A DNA stretch of 64,000 bases from Octopus sinensis (lineage: Eukaryota). The DNA is taken from assembly GCF_006345805.1 (NCBI RefSeq), contig NC_043015.1:29822001-29886000 (forward strand). The letters run 5' to 3'. Positions 40,249 through 40,995 of the stretch are shown one piece after another. The position numbers and the translations under genes were made by a program. Position 1 is the first letter of the stretch. Each line of letters opens with the position of its first letter. Under the pieces are notes generated by a model. It did no database searches, was not told the DNA's origin, and saw nothing but the letters and a program-made list of their open reading frames with translations.

Positions 40249-40387
40249 CTATTAATTATGATAGTAGTATTCCATCTACAAAATTCACCCAGAAGGCATA
40301 GGTCTATAGTAGAAGACACTTGCCCAGGACTGTATGTTTACATTATTTACATTTGACGGATATTTGTCCTCATCTTGTTTGTTGTTA

Positions 40388-40431
40388 ACACAACATTTCG
40401 GCTGATTTACCCTCCAGACTTCATCAGGTGT
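40388..40431 (-). ncRNA. Minimal type I hammerhead motif (partly decayed)
   Basis: Minus strand: acac CTGATGA a gtctg-gagggtaaat-cagcc GAAATGTT gtgt. Confidence 0.65.
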
Positions 40432-40709
40432 CTTGGGGAAATTTCGAACCTGGATTCTCATTCCTAAGGTATTTTACGATATTATTATTATTATTATTAT
40501 TCAGGTCACTGTCTGGAATCGAACTTGGAATCTTGGGGTTAGTAGCCCACGCTCTTAACCACTACAACATATGCCCGAGGGCATATGGCATAGTGGTTAA
40601 TGGCTCTGATAGCTGTGGGGAGAGTGCTTTAGGATTGAAAAGAGGGTGGACAGACTGCTATTTTTAACATACCTCAGGAATAAGAACTCGGGTTCAAAAT
40701 TTCCCCAAG

Positions 40710-40753
40710 ACACCTGATGAAGGTTGGAGGGTATATTAGCTGAAATGTTGTGT
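40710..40753 (+). ncRNA. Minimal type I hammerhead motif (partly decayed)
   Basis: acac CTGATGA a ggttg-gagggtatat-tagct GAAATGTT gtgt; stem I acac/gtgt. Confidence 0.65.
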
Positions 40754-40995
40754 TAAGGGAGTTAAGTTGTAGGGTGTTGTGGTTAGTTAAACCATTCTCT
40801 CACCATTGGGTGAATAATCTTGTTTGGAATTATCTGCATTTATTAGACTTACAATTAGCCCTGTTTAAGTCTCTTTTTCAACCAAGATACAATGATTTAG
40901 TGAATGACCTACCTTTATAGCATTGTTTCTGAAGCAGTCATTGGACCAATAGATCTGGGTCTAAACAACTTGTTGAATGTATTGGCCTAATTTAA

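Follow-up and report, generated by a model that had tools for sequence, protein, structure and literature searches.

What is a repeat that starts like a tRNA, carries a ribozyme motif and faces its own mirror image doing in the genome of an octopus? The question is raised by the window analysed here, a 64,000-nucleotide stretch of Octopus sinensis DNA, in which the initial annotation had seen a tRNA-headed SINE terminating in a hammerhead ribozyme, arranged as an inverted head-to-head dimer and proposed to depend on a Penelope element (PLE). It had also placed the host among the cephalopods, correctly. The answer that emerges is only partly the same. The unit is almost certainly the pseudo-LTR (pLTR) of an autonomous Penelope/Poseidon element, and we read the feature in the window as a decayed inverted pair of pLTR pieces, the head being probably an internal Pol III promoter.

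The window copy is a dead fragment, whose parts are collected in Table 1. The Pol III-type head, the (AAT)n spacer and the acac-CTGATGA-stem II-GAAAY-gtgt motif of the initial annotation are all present on the minus strand, the tRNA register being counted from the +1 of the head. The two promoter elements are those that we take to be A and B boxes from the box consensus, and the A box reads TGTTGTAGTGG in this copy and TGGCGTAGTGG in the family majority. The main-arm hammerhead runs from ACAC-CTGATGA (40431-40421) through stem II to GAAATGTT-GTGT, ending at 40388; its C15.2 has become T, and the cut is predicted after 40392. The arm terminates at the first RT-start site, without a tail. As for the second copy, said to point the other way, an inverted piece does exist, made of 92 nt of body matching at 87% and having neither head nor tail; it is no full copy, since what lies between the arms is a 22-nt fold-back of the head and 64 nt of foreign DNA, for which no significant match was found elsewhere in the window or among the loci fetched. 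In the window copy no target duplication was seen. Rfam reports no tRNA and no hammerhead there, nothing relevant at the locus, and simple-repeat miRNA noise only over the whole window, and ARAGORN finds no tRNA at the locus. The flanking repeat fragment resembles what is presumably the octopus OR2 SINE. Other repeats of the window include one with a 24-bp tandem array at 39910-40101, which we presume to resemble the octopus OK SINE, and a 231-bp MITE-like element with perfect 17-bp terminal inverted repeats at 40991-41221.

Table 1. Parts of the inverted pLTR pair and its flank, in window positions
Feature	Position	Strand	Evidence
Main arm: solo pLTR of Penelope/Poseidon element, unit positions 1 to ~244	40333..40580	-	94% to family majority; family matches
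tRNA-derived head, +1 at 40576	40502..40576	-	Family head against genomic tRNAs, z up to 7.6; copy L014 against RF00005, 20.6 bits
Putative A box, decayed in window copy	40559..40569	-	Sequence; family majority; column conservation
Putative B box GTTCGATTC	40516..40524	-	Sequence; family column conservation
(AAT)n tract, variable in length, frequent site of truncation	40480..40501	-	Sequence; family copies
First 42 codons of RT-endonuclease ORF	40336..40461	-	Open frame; equivalent frame leads into RT in L176 and L167; aligns with P0012
Minimal type I hammerhead motif within ORF start	40388..40432	-	Motif; family majority; fold test; architecture compared with PMC4209133 (part covered)
22-nt head fold-back at GCCC-NN-GGGC palindrome	40579..40600	+	Inverted repeat I6; the junction is found again in other copies and in loose read ends
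64 nt unrelated to element, separating the arms	40601..40664		No element match
Second, inverted arm: unit positions 106-196, decayed hammerhead (CTGATGA at 40714)	40665..40756	+	Inverted repeat; motif; fold
Flanking fragment of another, unrelated repeat	40270..40329		More window copies at 4095, 6888 and 26052

A DNA search of the genome yields 3,990 candidate copies, of which 40 were scored, self excluded; these span nearly the full query at 89-94% identity, so that head and hammerhead are indeed linked in other copies, as the initial annotation had expected. The CTGATGA/GAAAC core is likewise found in the family majority, which reads GAAACGTT. The unit does not end at the hammerhead as had been thought: family copies pass it to two fixed ends 32 nt apart, 53 and 85 nt farther on, and autonomous copies continue into an ORF. 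The 20-mer at the outer end occurs exactly 4,208 times, which at 5-7% divergence would correspond to roughly 10,000-20,000 insertions. Non-CpG divergence from the family majority is ~5% and would put the age of the family at ~14 My at the rate quoted in the part of PMC13282606 covered here, both values coming from samples biased toward well-kept copies. The closest named protein matches bear octopus labels. The family looks extinct.

The source element was located upstream of two copies (L005 and L030), where homologous DNA codes for a PLE C-terminus. The head lies ~40 nt past the ORF stop in 29/30 loci chosen on endonuclease DNA alone (25/26 minus the seed and three duplicates), and the pLTR end stands directly before the ORF continuation in 26/30 loci chosen on the DNA just behind the tail, a set that includes duplicates (L150-153, L157/162). 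The ~2.6-kb unit, nearly whole in L138, is thus ordered as head, (AAT)n, ATG, hammerhead, two fixed ends, RT, putative GIY-YIG-type domain, 40-nt 3′ UTR and next head, and units are arranged as partial tandems (L164, L170, L174). What had passed for the body of a SINE is the start of the ORF, in frame into RT. An ATG 34 nt ahead of the hammerhead core opens the frame, which in natural copies runs into RT over 391 aa (L176) and about 390-401 aa (L167), and which is 49% identical to an 847-aa protein (P0012), hammerhead-coding codons included. In the family majority, a single ORF of ~818 aa encodes a PLE-type RT; the domain matches RVT_1 (E 1.2e-9) and the protein has 153 homologues at E<=1e-20. 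No intact ORF was found among 60 matches examined, every copy being broken, and the 51-aa peptide, searched as protein against the genome, retrieved only short frames, of at most 213 aa. PF01541 (GIY-YIG) gives no match on L127. The C-terminus of L127 does align with the part of P0098 that is PF01541-positive (E 5e-17 overall) and also with the C-terminus of an Anolis protein (P0051), likewise without a Pfam GIY-YIG match; the Anolis protein is 40% identical to the element in RT and 32% in the C-terminal part. In a midpoint-rooted tree built without named reference elements, P0004-P0012 are the neighbours of the element (100/99), which lies with the Anolis protein in an open group (91/92); two other PLE families of the genome fall elsewhere.

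Searching the genome with Pfam for GIY-YIG (147 matches) brought up three PLE families that were considered as the source and rejected, having other pLTRs; they serve as controls below. They are represented by L081-L089 and L091-L092, and two of them have open frames of 775-883 aa. A hammerhead-like motif in the L081/L082/L089 type has a TTGATAA core and resembles the U3-A8 covariation described in the part of PMC4209133 covered.

How the element inserts can be read from 80 regions around the first 82 tail matches listed (two merged, one, the ORF-linked L149, skipped), from which four duplicates were removed to leave 76 insertions. The frequency of inverted dimers, which the initial annotation had proposed to measure, comes to 44 of these 76 tail-picked insertions, each with an inverted arm upstream; among the 44, 30 arms end at 237-255 without the 32-nt tail and one ends with it. 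Flanks share at least 8 nt in 17 of 24 testable insertions, versus 0.7% of 552 mismatched pairs, and target duplications measure ~8-13 bp. The suggestion of a PLE-type inverted-end geometry is thereby borne out, with inverted arms, a tail on one end and target duplications. The base after the tail is A in 63/76 insertions, followed by T in 40/76, which reflects either an ATT-like target preference as in the anole element PAc, or a templated sequence longer by one or two bases; the latter is possible because the ORF continues with ATT. Standard PLE traits include inverted arms, a 32-nt tail on one side, target duplications and a minimal hammerhead; published examples show, in the parts covered, an inverted pLTR, a 31-bp tail, a 9-bp duplication, palindromic junctions and foreign DNA between solo pLTRs (PMC3846280, PMC8557442). 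All but the head and a deficit of T4 runs is standard Penelope biology.

In the family majority, the A and B boxes are perfect and in exact tRNA register (TGGCGTAGTGG at positions 12-22 and GTTCGATTC at 57-65, the register starting from G5). Against genomic tRNAs the head reaches alignment z values of up to 7.6 (5.6 for Ser), with like scores for the Arg, Ala and Ser tRNAs among those fetched; copy L014 gives 20.6 bits against RF00005 (E 0.055), under the cut-off. Where, then, do insertions begin? Among the 76 5′ ends, 24 lie at -15 to +12 around tRNA +1, with 3 at -45 to -16, 9 farther upstream, 11 at 13-40, none at 41-75, 12 within the AAT tract and 17 farther downstream. Exact 20-mer counts are 863 immediately upstream of the head versus 4,938 inside it, the latter inflated by the inverted arms. 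This 5′-end peak could stem from a hairpin or a Pol II start. The A/B-box scan of 53 metagenome relatives, which are 25-54% identical and not sisters, found none with boxes and nine with a minimal hammerhead. About 20 nt upstream of the head (3′ UTR, e.g. L110:1800-1825) resemble a decayed inverted copy of its start, as if the head had been captured via a fold-back event. Judged indirectly, by its boxes, the 5′-end peak and the T4 deficit described below, the pLTR head would with fair probability work as a Pol III promoter. The O. vulgaris annotation (PMC13282606 and its supplement) gives, in the parts covered, family counts and no comparable description. The literature covered, as distinct from repeat databases, in which the family may be deposited, describes no PLE with a tRNA head or a Pol III promoter; nor did it yield an autonomous element whose pLTR has A/B boxes in tRNA register, insertions starting at tRNA +1 or a T4-free 2.6-kb PLE unit.

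The T4 runs that end Pol III transcripts are absent from the sense strand of both L138 and the 2.6-kb majority unit. Given this lack and the tRNA-like head, the element likely used Pol III, as would be uncommon for a retrotransposon that codes for protein. Decayed copies contain 17 in 61.8 kb (0.28/kb) and 20 in 39.5 kb (0.51/kb). As controls, three ORFs from other PLEs of the genome (20-23% T) contain 21 in 5.6 kb, and six related metagenome ORFs, those with a long enough frame among the 53 loci, contain 37 in 9.7 kb. Other PLE ORFs thus average ~3.8 T4/kb, and the rate of the element is 7-14-fold below that of the nine controls; some short controls are also T4-poor (L091, 1 in 873 nt; L294, 1 in 1,251 nt). 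Against internal nulls the deficit is modest, with P 0.007 (mononucleotide) and 0.043 (dinucleotide), 0.017 with control codon usage and 0.062 with own codon usage, this last null having been run without 30 codons; among T3 runs, T4 accounts for 0/13 versus 21/70 (P 0.032). The deficit amounts to a single evolutionary observation, because all copies stem from few masters. Low Phe was considered as a sign of T avoidance and rejected, being common to relatives (2.2-3.3%).

The hammerhead is, as the initial annotation had it, of PLE type. The family majority and the natural copy L054 have the minimal type I build, a CUGAUGA / GAAAC-GUH core with a stem I of 4-5 bp, a long stem II, an extra base before stem II and a palindromic 15.2-16.2. 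Both window hammerheads carry GAAAT, which is CpG decay, and neither folds into a hammerhead shape (z -0.44 and 0.05), which L054 does (z -1.68). The build is that of the minimal, dimer-type PLE hammerheads in the part of PMC4209133 covered, for which monomers were not cleaved and dimers were weakly so. In RNA-seq, no read ends at the cut site in two runs, and standard RNA-seq might miss such ends. These two raw runs, under a related species label, were mapped together with two contig sets on L174. Reads fall on both strands, most are diverged from L174, and 67-72% continue into unlike sequence, as expected of copies within host transcripts. In the runs, starts accumulate neither at the head nor where the hammerhead would cut, and an intron ending at TTAG before the ATG has no such splice joint among those listed; the head-palindrome fold-back is visible as loose ends in both runs and in one contig set. 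The RNA data neither favour nor exclude a Pol III transcript.

How might such an element work? Pol III would initiate a few bases upstream of tRNA +1 and so fix the RNA's 5′ end; without a T4 terminator, it could traverse the ORF into the next pLTR. The RT-endonuclease would then begin reverse transcription internally, at the two sites bounding the tail, as in anole PAc, where two internal RT starts bound the tail (PMC11167929, part covered). A start within the RNA's first pLTR, or on the transcript of a solo pLTR, would give SINE-like copies of ~245/275 nt, and a start in the second pLTR would give ORF-containing, 5′-truncated copies. Folding of the cDNA back into head-to-head arms would be made possible by the palindrome that the RNA carries at its 5′ end. 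The hammerhead, cutting 70 nt behind the ATG and only as a dimer or with protein help, would part the ORF from its start codon. In this tentative reading, to which we give a probability of about one in three, the full protein-coding element (2.6-2.9 kb) is transcribed end to end by Pol III from a captured tRNA promoter, with its ORF purged of T4; internal RT starts in the first pLTR would make the element its own SINE, the same RNA having given rise to perhaps 10,000 short copies or more, and the hammerhead within the ORF could decide whether the RNA acts as message or as template. One objection is that an uncapped RNA is poorly translated. Another is that Pol III processivity is held to restrict such elements to about 1.3 kb (PMC10886601, part covered).

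A more conventional account is possible, if doubtful: an ordinary PLE would have captured the head of a tRNA-SINE once, as a passenger, and would be transcribed by Pol II from its pLTR like Drosophila Penelope, the 5′-end peak being a Pol II start or a hairpin and the T4 lack a clade trait or chance. Every structural hallmark fits published PLEs (PMC3846280 and PMC8557442, parts covered), the own-codon null gives P 0.062 with Phe low in relatives, the cloverleaf has decayed and the RNA runs show no discrete RNA start. Against a passenger head speak the perfect boxes of the family majority in exact tRNA register, the clustering of 5′ ends at tRNA +1 and the T4 rate 7-14-fold below the nine control ORFs.

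Could the short copies instead be an independent Penelope-dependent SINE lineage, mobilised in trans from masters of their own? They are far commoner, 67/76 falling short of the ORF within the ~900 nt fetched, and because head, promoter boxes and RT-start sites are all present, they could be transcribed and copied alone. What makes a separate lineage improbable is that the head belongs to the autonomous element, where it is present in 29/30 ORF-linked loci rather than absent as a SINE head should be, and that 118 solo and 52 ORF-linked copies have the same majority base at every column listed, share minor variants at 68, 158, 227 and 243, are similarly diverged (4.6% and 5.6%) and show no diagnostic substitution that would mark non-autonomous masters. 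Columns with P <0.01 are mostly due to gaps in the linked set; solo copies were partly chosen for pLTR likeness, so a small solo subfamily could escape detection. The unit is not an independent SINE but a PLE terminal repeat. The initial annotation was right about the PLE link and mistaken in seeing a SINE with a borrowed tail, as the pLTR of the autonomous PLE, against which it had proposed to test the 3′ 150 bp, covers the entire unit, head included. That a tRNA-SINE and a PLE fragment became nested by chance at the locus would suit the irregular second arm with its 64 foreign nt; this has next to no probability and is refuted by head and body being collinear family-wide.

The closest known systems, as described in the parts of the papers covered, are PAc of Anolis (PMC11167929) and Pen2a of Adineta (PMC3846280). 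They share the single ~820-840-aa ORF with RT and, as a putative domain in the octopus element, a C-terminal endonuclease, a pLTR that includes the ORF start with the hammerhead in it, a 30-40-nt tail on one end, an adjacent inverted pLTR, a ~9-bp target duplication, a palindromic inverted junction and foreign DNA between solo pLTRs. The Adineta pLTR is described as having TATA/Inr-like motifs of Pol II type (PMC3846280), whereas that of the octopus has a tRNA-derived head with A/B boxes, and its unit has no T4. Schistosoma Sm-alpha and Sj-alpha (PMC6765202) likewise combine, in a short repeat, a Pol III-type promoter and a type I hammerhead; they are non-coding, often tandem, and their promoter lies 3′ in the cleaved monomer, whereas the octopus repeat provides an autonomous element with its terminal repeat and the start of its ORF. 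TRIMp3 elements (Cassandra, Helenus, Ajax; PMC10886601) have a small-RNA-derived Pol III promoter in the terminal repeat as well, but they are non-autonomous LTR elements of at most ~1.3 kb, whose autonomous partners must, it is argued there, use Pol II, and the octopus head sits in an autonomous element. Animal non-LTR retrozymes (bioRxiv 10.64898/2026.07.22.740005, PMC7229834) are also short, pLTR-derived, hammerhead-bearing non-autonomous copies; they form head-to-tail tandem arrays and circular RNAs, as opposed to the dispersed head-to-head pairs of the octopus, and "Polymerase III" has no occurrence in the part of PMC7229834 covered. In the literature covered, partly in excerpt, all the elements known to have Pol III promoters with hammerheads or in terminal repeats are non-coding.

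A working division (PMC10886601, part covered) assigns Pol II to autonomous retrotransposons and Pol III to SINEs; it would be broken by an autonomous element, if real, that pairs a tRNA promoter with an ORF free of terminators. Translation and retrotransposition of a multi-kilobase Pol III RNA could then be tested, and so could the origin of SINE-like families in cis from an element's own terminal repeat. On the plain reading, solo pLTRs may account for some of the octopus "tRNA-SINE" annotation, and the fold-back arms and sharp 5′ end bear on the origin of PLE inverted ends.

Traces of this and other elements turned up elsewhere. P0001 and P0003, a cysteine-rich receptor-like/WD40 pair of predicted octopus proteins, start with the element's N-terminal peptide, which reflects either exonisation of the exon holding the pLTR's ATG or an artefact of annotation. 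At L064:2615, L093:4661 and L083:6515 lie type I hammerhead motifs whose stem III is palindromic (GAAACTCGAGT) and which likely come from other repeats. The window itself holds, at 7710-7744 on the minus strand, a second, unrelated minimal hammerhead (GTTT-CTGACGA-A-GAGC..GCTC-GAAACGTC-AAAC) with core and stems intact, which probably belongs to another PLE pLTR family because a near-identical motif lies in the L133 flank.
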